From contig JAIZWK010000001.1 in the NCBI GenBank assembly GCA_021498095.1, positions 1,320,001 to 1,352,000 on the forward strand: a stretch of DNA of 32,000 bases. The letters run 5' to 3'. The notes below the pieces were generated by a model, which did not search any database, was not told the origin of the DNA, and saw nothing but the letters and a program-made list of their open reading frames with translations. The position numbers and the translations under genes are program-made. This stretch comes from Candidatus Harpocratesius repetitus. GTDB lineage: Archaea > Asgardarchaeota > Lokiarchaeia > Sigyniarchaeales > Promethearchaeaceae. This document shows, piece after piece, positions 3,125-27,710 of the stretch (its first letter is position 1; every line of letters starts with the position of its first letter).

Positions 3125-4318
3125 CTAATTTAGTGTGTTTAAAATTCTTTCTTGGGCGATATTTTGAGCAATATCTCTTGGAATTAGATCATATTCTAAA
3201 GAACGTTTCAAGATCATATTAGAATTTTTTCGAATTGTTCGTTCAATTAAAGAAATAGTTTCAAATGGATCCAGCTTTTTATATTCTGCAAAAGAGCTAA
3301 TTACACTTCCCGCATTTACTAAAATATCTGGTAAAACCATTGTTTCTTGTTCAAAAAGTCTTTTTTCTGCTTTGGAAGTGATTGCATTATTTGCACATTC
3401 AAGGATTAACTTAGTTTCAAGTTGAAACCAATTTTTTTCATTTATTGCATAAGCATTAGCACACGGAATAAATATATCACATTTAATTTTGTAAATATCT
3501 TCTCTTTCAAGCATTTTACCATATTTATAATTCATTAAAGACGATTCTTTTGATTGTGCATTTGCATATTGTCGGATCTTCTTAATATCAATTCCATTGG
3601 GATTATATATTGTTCCCCATAGATCATTAATCGCAATGATCTTTGCACCTCTCTTTTGAAGAAATTTACTAATTGTAAAACCTATTTTTCCAAATCCTTG
3701 TATAACCACTGTAGTTTCTGATAGATCTTTTGGTAAATGATAATTTTCATGGAGAATTCTTAAAGCTGATTCTAAAGCAGTACCCATTCCAAAGCCTACA
3801 GCTGCATATTTATTTGGAAATCCTCCATTTATTTTCGGTTTTCCTGTTGCTCCTTGTAAATCACCAATGCTATCTACAAAAGCCTTCATTTCAGATTCTC
3901 CTACATTTAAATCTGGGCTAGCAATATAGCTATTTGGGACAAAAGGAGCGATTTTTTTTGCAAATATTTTGATTTGTTTTAATTTATTAATTTGGTAAGG
4001 ATCTGCTCGAATTGCTGCTTTTGCTCCACCAAAAGGTACTTCTGCTAAGGCACATTTCCAAGTCATTGCTCTCGCAAGCTTAAATACTTCGAATGGAGTA
4101 ATCGTTGGGGATATAACTAGTCCTCCGATTCCTGGGCCTTGTATCGTATTATCAATTACCAAAATACCTTGCAATTGAGTTTCAGGATCATAGACATGGA
4201 GGACTTCTTCTGGGCCCCATTTATCTGAAAAGGCAGATATATTGACTTTTTCTAAAATATCTAAAAGTGTTTTTGAATTAATCATCAGATTATTTGTTTG
4301 ACTAATAGATCGTGTCAT
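3125..4318 (-). CDS. Glu/Leu/Phe/Val dehydrogenase family protein, divergent paralog
   Basis: MTWK, GGAKA, ASPD, TGKP, GFGKIG, ECANN and PDILVNAG are present. GPSKGG is replaced by GPGIGG and GRxEATG by NKYAAVG. Confidence 0.9.
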   Translation of the reverse strand: MTRSISQTNNLMINSKTLLDILEKVNISAFSDKWGPEEVLHVYDPETQLQGILVIDNTIQGPGIGGLVISPTITPFEVFKLARAMTWKCALAEVPFGGAKAAIRADPYQINKLKQIKIFAKKIAPFVPNSYIASPDLNVGESEMKAFVDSIGDLQGATGKPKINGGFPNKYAAVGFGMGTALESALRILHENYHLPKDLSETTVVIQGFGKIGFTISKFLQKRGAKIIAINDLWGTIYNPNGIDIKKIRQYANAQSKESSLMNYKYGKMLEREDIYKIKCDIFIPCANAYAINEKNWFQLETKLILECANNAITSKAEKRLFEQETMVLPDILVNAGSVISSFAEYKKLDPFETISLIERTIRKNSNMILKRSLEYDLIPRDIAQNIAQERILNTLN

Positions 4319-10077: not shown

Positions 10078-10306
10078 GATTATCAATCCTTTTCTTTTTC
10101 CATACCCCGATTTTTTTTCTCTAATGAACATTTAATCATTACAGTTAAAATATTTTTATAATAAAAAACGATTTTTTTTTACAATCGGCAGTTAAGATAA
10201 TTCTATTTATATAACCAATTATTTAATTTTCCATTTCAGTTCCATAAAATTTTTAATTTTTTCTGTGCTTCTCATCTTAATACTCTTAAGAAATAATTTA
10301 ATTTTT

Positions 10307-10426
10307 GGGATTGTTGCTTAGCCCGGTCAAAGCGCTAGTCTTATATGAAATAAATGCATACAATGAAATAACCGCATTTATTACTAGGCTAACTAGAAAT
10401 CGAGAGTTCAAATCTCTCCAATCCCA
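10307..10426 (+). tRNA. tRNA-Ile(UAU) with a 45-nt intron at canonical position 37/38 (intron 10346..10390)
   Basis: Acceptor GGGATTG/CAATCCC + A73, D stem GCTT/AAGC, anticodon stem CTAGT/ACTAG, T arm GAGAG-TTCAAAT-CTCTC. BHB central helix CUUA(10340-43):UAGG(10385-88) and intron stem AATAAATGC(10349-57):GCATTTATT(10374-82). The anticodon is TAT at 10342-44. Confidence 0.9.
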
Positions 10427-10506
10427 TGGTTCTCTAAGATTTGCTAAATTTTGTAAAGATCGGATGAATTCAAAGGTATAATGAACAAAAAGGATTTGAC
10501 GCCTTA

Positions 10507-11337
10507 CTAAACCAAGAAAAACTCCGAATTTTTCAACTTTTTTTTGAATTTTAGAATGATAGCCTGAAGCACTGGATCTGACGGCGGCAGTTTCTGCTGC
10601 AAATATGCCATAATACGGGGTGTTGCGCATTTTATTAGCCATTCAATGTGCTCTTCGGTAAAGCCGTTGGGAAACCGCACATCTTCATGATTATAAGGAG
10701 AATCATCCACAAGTTTAAAAACAACCGTTTCAACGTAGTTTTCAAAAAAAGGTGCATACTTACCTTCGACGGGCGGTGGAAGATTAAAATCTGTGTTGCC
10801 GGTGGCTTGTGCAACATACATTTCGGCTAAATCTCCGAGCGTGGGGCAGTACAGCGGAATGTGGGCGCCGGGATGTTTTTTGCACCAATGCTCATACGTA
10901 TAAAATTCCGGCACTTTTACTTCATCATTGCAGGGAAAACAGTATTGAATTTCATGTTTAAATGTCGTCCATTTATGAGGCATGCGTATTCCTTTTTTGT
11001 ATAGTTTCAAAAATCTTTTTTTATCAAATCCATGATATGAATAGGCTTCATATCTTTCCTGTTCACTTTTTGATAATGGAATTCTTTTTAAATCATTTGG
11101 TGAAAATACCCGATATGGATTCTGTTTTCGCCATAAAAAGCGTAAAAACCAGTAGATATCGACCGGAAACCCTTCTGAATCGTATTTAATCCAATTGGGA
11201 AGTGGAATCGGGAGCCAAAATCTTTCTCCATCTCTATGTATTGGAATAGGCCTTAGATCGATGCCGTAGCGCCAGTAATAATCGCATAGAGTAAAATGAT
11301 AGCCTGTACAATTTGTAGAGAGGTAATGTCGTAGCAA
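10507..11337 (-). CDS. Hypothetical protein (W/Y/P-rich N-terminus) with a C-terminal domain shared with 26840..27532
   Basis: 276-aa ORF. Internal homology to the C-terminal ~98 aa of 26840..27532 supports it being a real gene. Confidence 0.75.
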   Translation of the reverse strand: MLRHYLSTNCTGYHFTLCDYYWRYGIDLRPIPIHRDGERFWLPIPLPNWIKYDSEGFPVDIYWFLRFLWRKQNPYRVFSPNDLKRIPLSKSEQERYEAYSYHGFDKKRFLKLYKKGIRMPHKWTTFKHEIQYCFPCNDEVKVPEFYTYEHWCKKHPGAHIPLYCPTLGDLAEMYVAQATGNTDFNLPPPVEGKYAPFFENYVETVVFKLVDDSPYNHEDVRFPNGFTEEHIEWLIKCATPRIMAYLQQKLPPSDPVLQAIILKFKKKLKNSEFFLV

Positions 11338-11451: not shown

Positions 11452-13983
11452 ATGATAAAGAGTTTTTTTATTATATTCTTGCTTAATATCATATTTTTAG
11501 GATTTTCAAATACTGCAGTTCTTCATGAACTCACATTACTTCAGGATGATTCTTCGAATTTTAGTCAGATGAAAGAAAATGAAAATTCTACTCCTTTTAC
11601 TTCAACTATTTCCTTCACCGATTTGTCGAATTCAAGTGGTATAATTGGGAATTCATTTTTTCATTATCAATGGGATAACTTCACTTTGGAATCAGAGAAT
11701 TTCACAGATATTTCTACCTATTCAGATTGGTTTTTATTAAATAATGGGACTTCAGACGTGTGGGTGGAGATACAAACAATCACTAATCTTTCTTATTCAT
11801 TTGGAGGAAATACAAAATATTTTACATTTGAAATCTTTGAAGATGCAGATAACAGTGTGCTAGACAACTGGAAATATAATATTTCTGAATTTGAATCGAT
11901 TTATTGGCAAGGTTATGAAGATTATTATTGGAATAATTATCAAGATGACTGGATGCAGTATGAAGATCCCAATTTAGAACAACCAGATTATGATCTTACA
12001 GGAGATTCTTCAAATGATAGTTATTATGATACTTTTTCCATGGAAGTTTCTGATTTTTATGAGAACTCAATTTGGGGAGATCAAGAAGATGGGATAAATA
12101 ATTGGGGATTTAGCGATCAATATGTGCAAAACTTGCAAGCTTATGAAATTATGCGCGATTCTCTTAGCGGTGATGAAAAATGGTGGTTCTTTAACGTATA
12201 TTTAGAAGATTGGACGGATGAAACAACAGGAACAATTGGATATAAATGGATAGATCTTGAATCTGGGCAACAAATCGACCCTACTTCAATAAATTGGAGT
12301 CCTGTGTCTGGTTATGAATATGATTGGGAGATTGCACAGTGGATGCAAACTAATGAAACTATTAATCAAACTTCAGAATGGGCTTGGTTTTCCTATGATT
12401 TGTCACAATGGGTGAGTTGGAATGATTTAGTCAGTGATTCAATTGATTTTCTCATTACGACAACTTCATTTACAGGAATGTCTCTTTATAATGATACAAA
12501 TCAAAATGGGATTGCTGAAGCATTTTATGATGTTGTAGATAGTGGAAGTGGCTCTTCAAATGGCCTTTATTATGATCGAGATCAGTCGGAGTATATTTCG
12601 TACATTACCATTGATTCATTTCAAGATGTAGTTTTTAATCTTGATTATTTGCCAGATTCAGAAAATTTGAATTTTTCTTTAACCTTTTCTGGTGTTACTT
12701 TAACATCGGAACCTTATGGTTATGATTACGAGTCGATTTTATATAATGAGGTTGATGAATGGGGGAATGAATCATGGTTCGATGATAATTCTACGAGTAC
12801 ATCACCTTCTCTTTACAATTCTTCAACATCATTTTATCTTGAGAATATGACCATTGCATGTTCTTTTCAAACTTCTGAATTAGATAATGTGAATAATGCT
12901 TCAACATTTGGTATTAAGCATCAATTAAGTGATTTCTTATATAGGACAAAACACAGTTTTGCAGGTGATATGTTATCTGGATTAGGGATTACTATGGATT
13001 ATTCCGTTTCTTCCCAGCAATTTTCAAATATTGTTTCACTAAGTGAACCTACTACTTCCTACAATCTTGCTTCAGTAGATGTTGATGGTGATGTCAATAT
13101 ACATGCAAATAATTCGACTATTATACAAATGGAATTACAACAGAAGTATTTTTGGGGAAAGAACAACAAAGAATATTGGAATACTGTTGCATTATCCCCT
13201 AGTTATGGCTTTTCAATTCACTATGGGGATTTAAATTTTGGTATGGCTAAAGATTATTCTGAGCAAATGGCTCCATATTTCTATAGTTTATGTTTTGGAA
13301 ATTGGGAAGGATATTCAATTATAATGGATCCTACATTCACTAGTTTTCTTACAGTTGAATCTGTAAATTCTGAATTTTCCCCGATTCCTGGTCAAAATAA
13401 TTGGCGAATATCAAATGTTTTAATAATTATTTTTCTTTCCTTTGCTGTTGTATTCGGAATTTTGATGTCTAAACAAGAATATCGCGCTTTTTTACTCAAT
13501 CGTGTGATGTTTCTGGATACAGGTGCCCACCGTTTAAGTATGGAGGATGTATTAGAAAATGAAAATCGATCAAAAGTGATCGATTTAATTGTAGAAAATC
13601 CCGGTATTCATTTCAGTGAACTTTTACGACAGACCCAACTTGCTCCTGGGAATTTAAATTGGCACCTTGAGATCTTGGAACGGTATAAAATCATAAAGAG
13701 CGAAATTGTTGGTAAATATGTTATGTATTTTCCTTATCATGGGAAAAATCCATTATCAAATATTGATTTAAAACTGCAGAAAAGTAAAACCACAATGGAA
13801 ATTTTAGAAATCATACAAACGACGCCAGGATTGAGCCAAAATCAAATTGCAAAAAAAATTGAAAAAAACCATAAAACTGTAAAATATCATTTGGACAAAC
13901 TTATCAAAGCAGATTTAATTAAAAAGCGACAAGAGGGTCGAAAATCCTTACTTTATCCTACAATTGAAGATCTTGACTCTTAG
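11452..13983 (+). CDS. Membrane-anchored transcriptional regulator: signal peptide, ~640-aa acidic ectodomain, one TM helix, cytoplasmic tandem wHTH (COG3398/ArsR-MarR-like)
   Basis: N-terminal hydrophobic signal and TM VLIIIFLSFAVVFGILM (~13417-13467). Two wHTH follow: NENRSKVIDLIVENPGIHFSELLRQTQLAPGNLNWHLEILE and KTTMEILEIIQTTPGLSQNQIAKKIEKNHKTVKYHLDKL. Confidence 0.85.
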   Translation: MIKSFFIIFLLNIIFLGFSNTAVLHELTLLQDDSSNFSQMKENENSTPFTSTISFTDLSNSSGIIGNSFFHYQWDNFTLESENFTDISTYSDWFLLNNGTSDVWVEIQTITNLSYSFGGNTKYFTFEIFEDADNSVLDNWKYNISEFESIYWQGYEDYYWNNYQDDWMQYEDPNLEQPDYDLTGDSSNDSYYDTFSMEVSDFYENSIWGDQEDGINNWGFSDQYVQNLQAYEIMRDSLSGDEKWWFFNVYLEDWTDETTGTIGYKWIDLESGQQIDPTSINWSPVSGYEYDWEIAQWMQTNETINQTSEWAWFSYDLSQWVSWNDLVSDSIDFLITTTSFTGMSLYNDTNQNGIAEAFYDVVDSGSGSSNGLYYDRDQSEYISYITIDSFQDVVFNLDYLPDSENLNFSLTFSGVTLTSEPYGYDYESILYNEVDEWGNESWFDDNSTSTSPSLYNSSTSFYLENMTIACSFQTSELDNVNNASTFGIKHQLSDFLYRTKHSFAGDMLSGLGITMDYSVSSQQFSNIVSLSEPTTSYNLASVDVDGDVNIHANNSTIIQMELQQKYFWGKNNKEYWNTVALSPSYGFSIHYGDLNFGMAKDYSEQMAPYFYSLCFGNWEGYSIIMDPTFTSFLTVESVNSEFSPIPGQNNWRISNVLIIIFLSFAVVFGILMSKQEYRAFLLNRVMFLDTGAHRLSMEDVLENENRSKVIDLIVENPGIHFSELLRQTQLAPGNLNWHLEILERYKIIKSEIVGKYVMYFPYHGKNPLSNIDLKLQKSKTTMEILEIIQTTPGLSQNQIAKKIEKNHKTVKYHLDKLIKADLIKKRQEGRKSLLYPTIEDLDS

Positions 13984-22338: not shown

Positions 22339-25101
22339 TTATGATAAGAAATCTAATTGGAGTTCAAGTTGTTCTTTTTTCTCTTGATATTCTTCTAATT
22401 TTTCGCGTTCTTGCTGTACCAATTCTTTTGGAGCCCGTTCCGCAAAACTTCCTTGAAGTTTTTTATTGATCTTAGTAATCATATTTTCAACTTTTTTTAA
22501 TGCTTTTTGAATTCGGTTCTTTTCTTTCTCCAAGTCGATCATTCCGGCTAAAGGTAAAAAGGCTGTAATTCCATGTAAAATGATACGAGCTGATTGTTTG
22601 GGTTGTTCAATATTTTGCTCAATTTGTATTTTTTCTTTATCTAATCCAGCTAACTGCACCAATTCACGTTTCCATGAAGTAAATATCTCTGAATTCTCCG
22701 CTTTTATCATCATGGGTATTGCTTTATTGCTTGGAATGTTGAAATTGTGTTTAATATGGCGGATTTCACGAATGAATTCTGAAATTAGAGTAAATTCTTT
22801 TTCAATTTCAGAAGAAATCAATTTTTCATCTGGTTTTGGCCAAGATGCCACAATAATCGCTGGACTATCCTTGAGATATTCGGGAAGTACCTGCCATAAT
22901 TTCTCAGTCAGAAATGGCATTGATGGATGTAAAAGCCTGAAAAAGGTTTCTAATACGTGAATAAGAACTGCTTTTTGAATTTCTTTATGTAAATGTTCTT
23001 TATCATAAAGATATAATTTAGAGCATTCTAAATACCAATCGCAATAATCCGACCAGAAGAAGTTTTTAAGTTCACGAGTCATTCGAAGATAATCATATTT
23101 TTCCATATATGTATTCACTTGGCGAATTAACCTATTTAAACGGGAGAGAATCCATTTATCTGGAAGCTCCAATTGAGAGTAATTAATTTCAGCCATTGGG
23201 ATTATTTTCTCATTTTCATCAATATTTCCTAATACATATCTAGTAGCTTGCCATATTTTATTGCAAAATCGGTGCGCTGCTTCAACATTTCTAAGATCAA
23301 GGTTTTGATCCAATCCAGGTGTGCAGTTTGACAGTAGCGTATAACGTAAAGAATCTGCACCGTAATTTTCGATTATATTTAGAGGATCGTATTGTTCCAC
23401 ATTTTCCATTGATTTTGAGATTTTCTGACCCTTTTCATTTCGTATTAATCCATGTAAATAAACATGTTTAAATGGAGCCTTTCCAGTTAACTCTATTCCC
23501 ATCATCATTTCGCGTGCCACCCAGAAAAATAGAATATCATAACCAGTTTCACGTATGTCTGTGGGATAAAATTTTAGATAATCTGGACTTTCAACGTTTG
23601 GCCAACCTAAGGTTGAAAAAGACCATAATGCTGATGAAAACCAAGTATCTAAAACGTCTTCTTCTTGCTCAATTTTATTACTTCCACATTTTGGACATTT
23701 TTCCACCTTATTTATATGAGGTTCAGGACAAATTTCAGCTTCACAATCTTGACAATACCATATTGGAATTCGATGACCCCACCACAATTGGCGTGATATA
23801 CACCAATCTCGAATATTGCTCATCCAGTGGTAAAATCTTTGTTCTTCTCGTTCTGGTAAAATTGTTATTTCGCCTGATTTTACTGCATTCATGGCTGCTT
23901 CAGCAAGCGGCTTAGTTTTAACAAACCATTGAATTGAAACTCGTGGTTCAATTGCAGTATGACAGCGCTGGCAGTGTCCAACTGCATGTTGATATGGTTC
24001 GATTTTAACCATAAGGCCTTCTTTCTCGAGATCTTTTACGATCGCCTCTCTACATTCAAAACGATCCATTGATGCATAATGAGATGATATTTCAGGTAAT
24101 ATTCTGGCTTTTTCATCAAATATATTTATAAATTCTAAATGATTTCGTATACCAACTTCAAAATCATTTGGATCATGAGCTGGTGTGATTTTCACTGCTC
24201 CAGTTCCAAATTCTGGATCAACATGCTCATCTACAATGATTGGGATTTCTTTTCCTATTACTGGAAGAACAGCAAATTTGCCAATCAATTTGCCAAATTG
24301 ATGATGTTGTGGATGTGTGGCAATCGCAGTATCACCCATTAATGTTTCGGGTCGCGTGGTAGCAACTTCAATAAACTCTGTCGCACCTTCTGCCCATTTT
24401 CCAGAACCCCATTCATGAGTTGGACCTGACCATTTATCTGTTTTTATTGGATAACGGATATACCAAAGATTCGAGTTTTCATCAATAGCTTCCGTCTCTA
24501 AATCAGAAATTGCTGATTCACATCGACCAGGGCACCAATTTACCATATATTCTCCTCTATAGATTAATCCTTTTTGATATAGGCGATAAAATGCTTCTCG
24601 CACTGCATGGGATAGATCTTCATCTAAAGTAAAATGCTCTCTGGTCCAATCGCTACTGATTCCAATACTTTTAGATTGTTTGGTAATCCGTGCGTGGTAT
24701 TGTTCTTTCCATTCCCACACTTTTTGAACGAATTTTTCTCTTCCTATTTCTTTACGCGAAATTCCTTCTTTTGCTAATTCTCGCTCCACTACATTTTGAG
24801 TGGCAATACCCGCATGATCTGTTCCAGGAATAAAGAGTGTTTCTTTATGTTTCATACGCTCATATCGGGTCATAAGATCTTCAATAGATATGGTGATTGC
24901 GTGCCCTAAATGAAGTTGTCCAGTTACATTTGGGAGTGGAAGGGTGATGCAATATTTTTCAGTTTTATCATCAAAGAAACCTAATTCTTTTATTTTTTCA
25001 GGTCGAAAATATCCTTCTCTTTCCCACCATTCATATATTTCAGCTTCAAATTCATTATGATTATACACTTTTGGTAATTGTTCGCTTAGTTTTTCCACCA
25101 T
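22339..25101 (-). CDS. valS: Valyl-tRNA synthetase (bacterial/eukaryotic type)
   Basis: PNVTGQLHLGH, GTDHAGIATQ, ATTRPET, GTGAVKITPAHD, DWCISRQLWWGH, DVLDTWFSS, KISKS, and a C-terminal coiled-coil arm. Confidence 0.97.
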   Translation of the reverse strand: MVEKLSEQLPKVYNHNEFEAEIYEWWEREGYFRPEKIKELGFFDDKTEKYCITLPLPNVTGQLHLGHAITISIEDLMTRYERMKHKETLFIPGTDHAGIATQNVVERELAKEGISRKEIGREKFVQKVWEWKEQYHARITKQSKSIGISSDWTREHFTLDEDLSHAVREAFYRLYQKGLIYRGEYMVNWCPGRCESAISDLETEAIDENSNLWYIRYPIKTDKWSGPTHEWGSGKWAEGATEFIEVATTRPETLMGDTAIATHPQHHQFGKLIGKFAVLPVIGKEIPIIVDEHVDPEFGTGAVKITPAHDPNDFEVGIRNHLEFINIFDEKARILPEISSHYASMDRFECREAIVKDLEKEGLMVKIEPYQHAVGHCQRCHTAIEPRVSIQWFVKTKPLAEAAMNAVKSGEITILPEREEQRFYHWMSNIRDWCISRQLWWGHRIPIWYCQDCEAEICPEPHINKVEKCPKCGSNKIEQEEDVLDTWFSSALWSFSTLGWPNVESPDYLKFYPTDIRETGYDILFFWVAREMMMGIELTGKAPFKHVYLHGLIRNEKGQKISKSMENVEQYDPLNIIENYGADSLRYTLLSNCTPGLDQNLDLRNVEAAHRFCNKIWQATRYVLGNIDENEKIIPMAEINYSQLELPDKWILSRLNRLIRQVNTYMEKYDYLRMTRELKNFFWSDYCDWYLECSKLYLYDKEHLHKEIQKAVLIHVLETFFRLLHPSMPFLTEKLWQVLPEYLKDSPAIIVASWPKPDEKLISSEIEKEFTLISEFIREIRHIKHNFNIPSNKAIPMMIKAENSEIFTSWKRELVQLAGLDKEKIQIEQNIEQPKQSARIILHGITAFLPLAGMIDLEKEKNRIQKALKKVENMITKINKKLQGSFAERAPKELVQQEREKLEEYQEKKEQLELQLDFLS

Positions 25102-27637: not shown

Positions 27638-27710
27638 GGGCCCATGGCTTAGTTGGTAGAGCGTCTGATTCGCATTCAGAAGGTGGAGGATTCGATTTCC
27701 TCTGGGTCCA
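27638..27710 (+). tRNA. tRNA-Ala(CGC), no intron, CCA not encoded
   Basis: Acceptor GGGCCCA/TGGGTCC with the G3:U70 alanine identity pair, anticodon arm TCTGA-TTCGCAT-TCAGA, T arm GAGGA-TTCGATT-TCCTC. Confidence 0.97.

Follow-up and report, generated by a model that had tools for sequence, protein, structure and literature searches.

The window analyzed here, a stretch of 32,000 nucleotides from an Asgard archaeon, carries a single-copy tRNA-Ile gene with a UAU anticodon and one intron, and we consider it likely, with a probability of roughly 0.87, that this gene gives a functional tRNA that reads AUA codons and replaces TiaS and tRNA-Ile2(CAU) in a member of the family of Promethearchaeum syntrophicum MK-D1. 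In the usual archaeal route to AUA, TiaS turns C34 of tRNA-Ile2(CAU) into agmatidine. Replacement of that route by a UAU anticodon has precedents in a small number of other archaea; the Asgard case is an addition to these, in which the trait tracks TiaS loss across lineages. Its distribution among Asgard archaea appears to be unreported in print, and a search of the accessible literature for TiaS or agmatidine together with Asgard or Lokiarchaeota found no paper.

Several sequence analyses confirmed the gene, its anticodon and its single intron with predicted splice sites (Table 1). The Rfam tRNA model RF00005 matched it over its whole length (56.5 bits, E = 8e-10); the alignment opens a 46-nt insertion on the 3' side of CUUAUA, within the anticodon loop. 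ARAGORN with introns allowed (-i) returned tRNA-Ile(tat) with a 45-nt intron in the same place, and the default run without the intron option did not call the gene. The acceptor stem (GGGAUUG/CAAUCCC) is followed by discriminator A73, and directly 3' of this lies TGG, such that CCA is not encoded. A D arm is present, as are an anticodon stem (CUAGU/ACUAG) and a T arm (GAGAG-UUCAAAU-CUCUC). The loop reads C32-U33-U34-A35-U36-A37, then the intron, then A38 at 10391, giving a mature loop of CU-UAU-AA, and the spliced 75-nt tRNA is predicted to fold as a cloverleaf. A 114-aa open reading frame (window 10298-10642, minus strand) runs antisense over the full length of this gene. The frame, almost certainly spurious, presents a risk of miscalling.

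The original prediction, made from the letters of the window, had drawn a bulge-helix-bulge (BHB) with a CUUA:UAGG central helix, two 3-nt bulges and a 9-bp intron stem, and had placed the splice sites at 10345/10346 and 10390/10391. The same geometry is found in the sequence, which has the 4-bp central helix, the two 3-nt bulges and the outer helices of an hBHBh' motif, and an intron-bearing tRNA-Ile(UAU) with these sites is supported. RNAfold predicts the 9-bp stem from 10349-10357 paired with 10374-10382. Energy supports the drawing as well: the precursor folded as cloverleaf plus hBHBh' has a predicted energy of -28.3 kcal/mol, within 2.3 kcal/mol of the minimum free energy of -30.6 kcal/mol.

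Table 1. The tRNA-Ile(UAU) gene and its parts, in window positions
Feature	Position	Strand	Basis
Pre-tRNA-Ile(UAU) gene	10307..10426	+	Rfam; ARAGORN -i; own covariance model R1, 117.9 bits; covariation in 8 orthologues
5' exon, tRNA positions 1-37	10307..10345	+	Sequence; BHB register
BHB central helix, 5' strand CUUA (C32-A35), partner 10385-10388	10340..10343	+	100% of cells paired in 8 orthologues
Anticodon TAT (U34 A35 U36)	10342..10344	+	Sequence; Rfam; ARAGORN -i; invariant in orthologues
5' three-nucleotide bulge, predicted cut 10345/10346	10344..10346	+	hBHBh' geometry from sequence; structure energy
Intron, 45 nt, canonical 37/38 position	10346..10390	+	Rfam; ARAGORN -i; structure energy
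Intron hairpin: G-C pair (10347/10384), A.A mismatch, 9-bp stem, 16-nt loop	10347..10384	+	RNAfold (9-bp stem)
ACA, two nt into the apical loop of the intron	10360..10362	+	Position kept across Asgard families
BHB central helix, 3' strand UAGG (intron nt 40-43)	10385..10388	+	Covariation alignment of 8 orthologues
3' three-nucleotide bulge, predicted cut 10390/10391	10389..10391	+	hBHBh' geometry from sequence; structure energy
3' exon, tRNA positions 38-73	10391..10426	+	Sequence; Rfam

Covariation within the window's family (f1) indicates that this structure is maintained. The whole precursor was aligned for eight orthologues from eight genomes and five genera, all belonging to f1: 11 of 25 base pairs change on both sides while 98.5% of cells stay paired, a level reached by none of 500 shuffled controls, and the signal collapses when the partner columns are slid. 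The anticodon and the BHB central helix are kept in all eight, with U-A/U-G changes in the helix on the intron side, and the homologous introns of the family measure 45-59 nt. In the anticodon stem of this genome's gene, a G-C pair has become A-U through changes on both sides, and pairing is kept. The original prediction hung on T rather than C at 10342, and an independent contig from a hydrothermal-vent metagenome covers 10330-10480 with zero differences; this T is therefore not an assembly error.

The closest paralogue in the genome is tRNA-Ile(GAU) at genome positions 656182-656311, the partner isoleucine tRNA, which scores 73.3 bits against 117.9 for the UAU gene in our covariance model. 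Pairwise identities among the mature tRNAs (52, 50 and 48 of 75) do not discriminate between an origin of the UAU tRNA from a GAU gene and one from a CAU gene. The neighborhood offered no functional link: ileS is not adjacent, and the gene for valyl-tRNA synthetase (window 22339-25101, minus strand) lies 12 kb off. Elsewhere in the window are two nearby paralogues of the glutamate dehydrogenase family (1001-2287 and 3125-4318, both minus strand), an 843-aa protein (11452-13983, plus strand) whose only recognizable parts are C-terminal helix-turn-helix domains (HVO_0163-type and winged helix), and an intron-less tRNA-Ala(CGC) (27638-27710, plus strand; Rfam 64.5 bits) in a genome many of whose tRNAs bear introns.

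By sequence comparison, the host is an Asgard archaeon (Promethearchaeota) of the MK-D1 family, in a genus other than that of MK-D1; another genome of f1 (G210) is identical to the chromosome of P. syntrophicum MK-D1 over the 1-kb stretch compared. The host genome is closed, a single contig of 4.36 Mb at 31% GC, and it was searched for the enzyme of the usual route, as the original prediction had proposed. The Pfam profile TiaS_FLD found no match above cut-off in the closed genome, while all four archaeal control genomes matched. A tblastn search with six full-length Asgard TiaS proteins likewise gave nothing at E <= 0.01, although genes neighboring tiaS in their source genomes did match. The prediction had allowed the UAU tRNA to work either alongside TiaS or instead of it, and with no tiaS homologue detected the first option falls away.

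The second option gains from the tRNAs themselves. Anticodon arms bearing CAU, interrupted by an intron or not, were sought in two independent scans, which recovered only the initiator (about 751,327-751,432) and the elongator tRNA-Met (4,073,112-4,073,235; acceptor stem GCCGGAG), and found no third CAU tRNA; these scans replaced earlier ones anchored on the T-arm/acceptor or T-loop, which were dropped after missing known genes such as the elongator tRNA-Met with its unusual T-loop. The genome is intron-rich and the inventory stands at about 40 genes, which is incomplete, with several expected isoacceptors missing; a whole-genome Rfam tRNA scan returned only 25 tRNAs. A CAU tRNA split up by introns of an unusual kind could thus have evaded the scans, and an agmatidine-like enzyme without relation to TiaS is conceivable. 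Both CAU genes have peculiarities of their own. In the elongator tRNA-Met, the 37/38 intron measures 50 nt and contains a GGGTCA-type motif, found again in families f1, f6, f7 and f13 (loci L036, L044, L045, L048 and L091); the T-loop of this tRNA, UCCAAUC, has C in the place expected for U55. The initiator gene (minus strand), with the anticodon arm GGGCUCAUAACCC, is interrupted upstream of the anticodon and is miscalled by ARAGORN as tRNA-Pyl(cta).

AUA occurs 22,252 times in 1698 long open reading frames, at 24.7 per 1000 codons compared to 20.8 for AUG. Across 1458 paralogue alignments, isoleucine or a second AUA accounted for 51% of the partners of a masked AUA and methionine for 2.6%, a profile that resembles those of AUU and AUC and not that of AUG, which faces methionine in 51%. 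AUA thus behaves as an isoleucine codon in this genome. Because TiaS is absent from the closed genome, no third CAU tRNA was detectable, and AUA is both common and isoleucine-like, tRNA-Ile(UAU) is most likely the only AUA reader, acting in place of TiaS rather than beside it.

Two other accounts of the gene can be weighed against these observations. It might be a decaying, non-functional copy, or AUA might have been reassigned, for example to methionine, with the tRNA not an isoleucine tRNA at all. Apart from the rarity of UAU anticodons in textbook archaea, nothing speaks for such an account, and its chances are close to negligible: compensatory changes keep all helices, including the gene's own anticodon stem, a single-copy gene faces a very common codon, AUA aligns like isoleucine and not like methionine, A73 and A37 are in place, and tRNA-Ile(GAU) is the closest paralogue. 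Alternatively, most AUA could be read by an undetected tRNA-Ile2(CAU) whose modifying enzyme bears no relation to TiaS, with the UAU tRNA as a supplement. The incomplete inventory, from which multi-intron tRNAs can escape detection, leaves some room for a hidden gene, but we consider this very unlikely given that both scans found only the two methionine tRNAs. Moreover, TiaS and the UAU gene exclude each other across the Asgard genomes surveyed, a pattern predicted by replacement and not by supplementation, and TiaS-positive relatives have Ile2-type CAU tRNAs where the window's lineage has UAU.

BLAST with the gene found orthologues only inside f1, and a covariance model and a pattern search were therefore needed to follow it further. 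The survey took in 332 Asgard genomes, with family counts drawn from those at least 80% complete (Table 2), and used the UAU pattern GCGCNGGYCTTATA, which spans position 26, the 5' strand of the anticodon stem and CUUAUA. By family, TiaS and the UAU gene are mutually exclusive; this division reflects a few ancient events and is not a statistic, related genomes not being independent of one another. TiaS is lacking in the window's whole class and in at least five other families; eight of the families without TiaS yielded the UAU gene. Judged from these searches, the TiaS system has been lost from the host's entire class and from several other Asgard families.

Table 2. TiaS and the UAU pattern in Asgard families (genomes with a match/genomes searched)
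Family	TiaS	UAU pattern
f1 (window's family)	0/3	8/10
f2	0/46	111/118
f3	0/4	4/4
f12	0/14	1/14
f13	0/3	1/3
f16	0/2	2/2
f20	0/2	1/2
f26-f30 (rest of window's class)	0/12	f30 1/2, real; f29 1/2, false; f27 and f28 none; f26 outside the pattern search
f5	21/24	0/27
f7	44/48	2/71, both false
f14	6/7	0/9
f18	6/6	0/6
f19	4/4	0/4
f21	12/12	0/19

Real UAU genes, often with multiple introns, were read in f12, f13, f20 and f30. The low count in f12 may be explained by an extra intron within the anticodon stem that breaks the exact pattern, as in the one case read (G011). Among the TiaS-less families f26 to f29, the narrow pattern found no real UAU gene, f26 not being part of that search; in f13, no UAU tRNA was among the covariance-model hits of one genome (G012), and its sister genome (G034) carries the gene. 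Neither the pattern search nor the covariance model turned up a real UAU gene in TiaS-positive families, where the best covariance-model matches were CAU, GAU or other tRNAs, never UAU. Pattern matches in three TiaS-positive genomes (G006 of f8; G120 and G135 of f7), in G239 and at a second place in G013 were rejected as not tRNA-like. Orthologous genes outside the window's class (L067 in G001, L065 in G020, L078 in G051, L069 in G011 and L100 in G034) have two to four introns, situated in the D-loop, anticodon stem, variable region or T-loop, compared to the single canonical intron of the window's gene. The family of Lokiarchaeum ossiferum also has the orthologous gene. One MAG of the genus Lokiarchaeum (G207; 85% complete, 1150 contigs) has two tRNA-Ile(UAU) copies (L109 and L013) with unrelated introns, only one of which contains the ACA listed in Table 1; this could reflect a true duplicate or mixed strains.

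In the pathway that we propose, the anticodon loop and intron of the precursor would fold into the hBHBh' motif, and a splicing endonuclease would cut at the two bulges, after 10345 and after 10390. The genome encodes two separate genes of the EndA family (tRNA_int_endo) and one RtcB (559.6 bits); RtcB would then ligate the exons, with CCA added afterwards. In the mature CU-UAU-AA loop, A37 probably carries t6A. Charged by IleRS, the tRNA would pair U34 with the A of AUA, taking over the task otherwise performed by TiaS-made agmatidine at C34 of tRNA-Ile2(CAU). Splicing, charging and the state of U34 and U36 are here inferred from the gene and the genome.

Such an arrangement had been framed in the original prediction as rare in prokaryotes and as a eukaryotic strategy. 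In that form the framing is not supported: the strategy is no rarity confined to this lineage or to eukaryotes, given its occurrence in ARMAN-2, -4 and -5 (PMC3239211), in Korarchaeum and Nanoarchaeum (PMC6000648) and in many DPANN MAGs. ARMAN-2 (Ca. Micrarchaeum acidiphilum), ARMAN-4 and ARMAN-5 have tRNA-Ile(UAU) and lack both TiaS and tRNA-Ile2(CAU), and the ARMAN-2 precursor carries at 37/38 an intron of 25 nt, set in a strict hBHBh' motif that the endonuclease of ARMAN-2 cut in vitro (Fujishima et al. 2011, PMC3239211). The Asgard gene shares the genomic UAU anticodon, the absence of TiaS and the canonical 37/38 intron in hBHBh'. It differs in belonging to an Asgard rather than a DPANN archaeon, in its longer intron (45 nt compared to 25 nt in ARMAN-2) and in the endonuclease, which is of the three-unit epsilon2 type in ARMAN and corresponds to two separate EndA-family genes here. 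A survey of 167 genomes recorded a UAU tRNA-Ile in just two archaea, Korarchaeum and Nanoarchaeum, and the intron-bearing Korarchaeum tRNA resembles the tRNA-Ile(GAU) of its own genome (PMC6000648), as the window's gene does. Whereas these two were treated as isolated, species-specific gains, the Asgard trait spans a whole class and several other families. In our scan of named genomes, many MAGs of Woese-, Micr-, Nano-, Pace- and Aenigmatarchaeota also proved to have the UAU anticodon arm. The archaeal-type pattern further appears at L145, L178, L212, L151, L154, L165 and L193, in MAGs labelled bacterium, Bacteroidota, Saccharibacteria and Methanosarcinales; these matches could be mis-binned DPANN contigs or chance.

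Other systems with a UAU anticodon, natural and artificial, allow further comparison. In Mycoplasma mobile, tRNA-Ile2(UAU) has an unmodified U34 (Taniguchi et al. 2013, PMC3575796); as in the host, UAU reads AUA after loss of the C34-modifying enzyme, but that tRNA is bacterial, intron-less and served by a bacterial-type IleRS. A Haloarcula tRNA-Ile mutated to U34 and expressed in Haloferax acquired cnm5U34, bound AUG and AUU too and served IleRS poorly as a substrate (Mandal et al. 2014, PMC3895270). This is likewise an archaeal tRNA-Ile body with UAU, though an artificial one, and since it misbehaved in these ways, a lineage with a natural UAU must have some adaptation. A 2022 review describes prokaryotes as generally not using UAU and eukaryotes as having "rescued" it (PMC8879553). 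In eukaryotes, nuclear tRNA-Ile(UAU) acquires Psi-A-Psi in an intron-dependent step (PMC9602550; PMC8879553). The Asgard gene resembles the eukaryotic one in its UAU anticodon, in a 37/38 intron that pairs with the anticodon region, in the absence of a lysidine or agmatidine route at C34 and in the relatedness of the host lineages. It is unlike it in having GAU rather than AAU/IAU as partner, in lacking a second TruA/Pus1 gene and in an intron that would be removed by archaeal BHB rules.

These likenesses raise the possibility that the Asgard tRNA follows the full eukaryote-like mechanism, in which U34, U36 or both would be pseudouridylated on the intron-bearing precursor and the intron kept because the enzyme needs it. 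Yeast Pus1 requires the intron of pre-tRNA-Ile(UAU) in this way. A 37/38 intron is present in every Asgard UAU gene read, across eight families, and the UAU tRNAs of Korarchaeum and ARMAN-2 are also intron-bearing. A further feature is the ACA two nucleotides into the apical loop. At least seven families share it: 27 of the 34 distinct Asgard introns have it, at intron nt 15 or 17, in a fixed register although the adjoining stems have diverged in sequence (loci L010, L012, L013, L065, L067, L078, L100, L101 and L105-L115, and the window). In TiaS-positive families, the CAU counterparts have introns without this ACA. In a mostly DPANN set, 16 of 76 introns have ACA at nt 15-17. The conserved ACA hints at an intron function beyond splicing.

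Nevertheless, we regard the full mechanism as rather unlikely. Introns are common among this genome's other tRNAs and widespread in Asgard tRNAs generally (PMC11291895), and therefore intron presence alone says little; in the named archaeal, mostly DPANN set, 6 of 80 UAU genes cleanly lack one. The intron of the elongator tRNA-Met, too, contains a motif conserved across families. Only one gene of the TruA/Pus1 family (PseudoU_synth_1) scored above cut-off in the genome, with no second synthase of Pus1 type, though this one TruA-family enzyme, or Cbf5, could still perform the pseudouridylation. With the E-value set permissively, an Rfam search of 10250-10480 gave nothing besides tRNA, and neither H/ACA nor C/D families matched. 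The M. mobile tRNA manages with a plain U34, and the GAU partner counts as against the mechanism or as neutral. We speculate, as an improbable extension, that the ACA, which 15 nt separate from U36, could be what an anticodon-modifying enzyme recognizes on the precursor, the enzyme being for instance a PUA-domain pseudouridine synthase like Cbf5, and that eukaryotes inherited their arrangement from an Asgard-type system. If so, the combination of an intron-bearing tRNA-Ile(UAU), intron-dependent Psi-A-Psi and no C34 route would be Asgard-type descent and not a eukaryotic invention.

To decode AUA while leaving AUG alone is a classic problem, and the reading that we prefer, replacement of TiaS by an intron-bearing tRNA-Ile(UAU), would extend one of its solutions to the class of the cultured P. 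syntrophicum MK-D1 and to several other Asgard families, in which TiaS and tRNA-Ile2(CAU) would have been swapped for this tRNA. Such genomes will be mislabeled wherever annotation presupposes a CAU Ile2 gene or overlooks intron-rich tRNAs. The same lineage would offer a culturable, eukaryote-related system for asking what keeps a natural UAU anticodon from reading AUG, how an IleRS of archaeal/eukaryotic type accepts UAU and whether the intron has a role.
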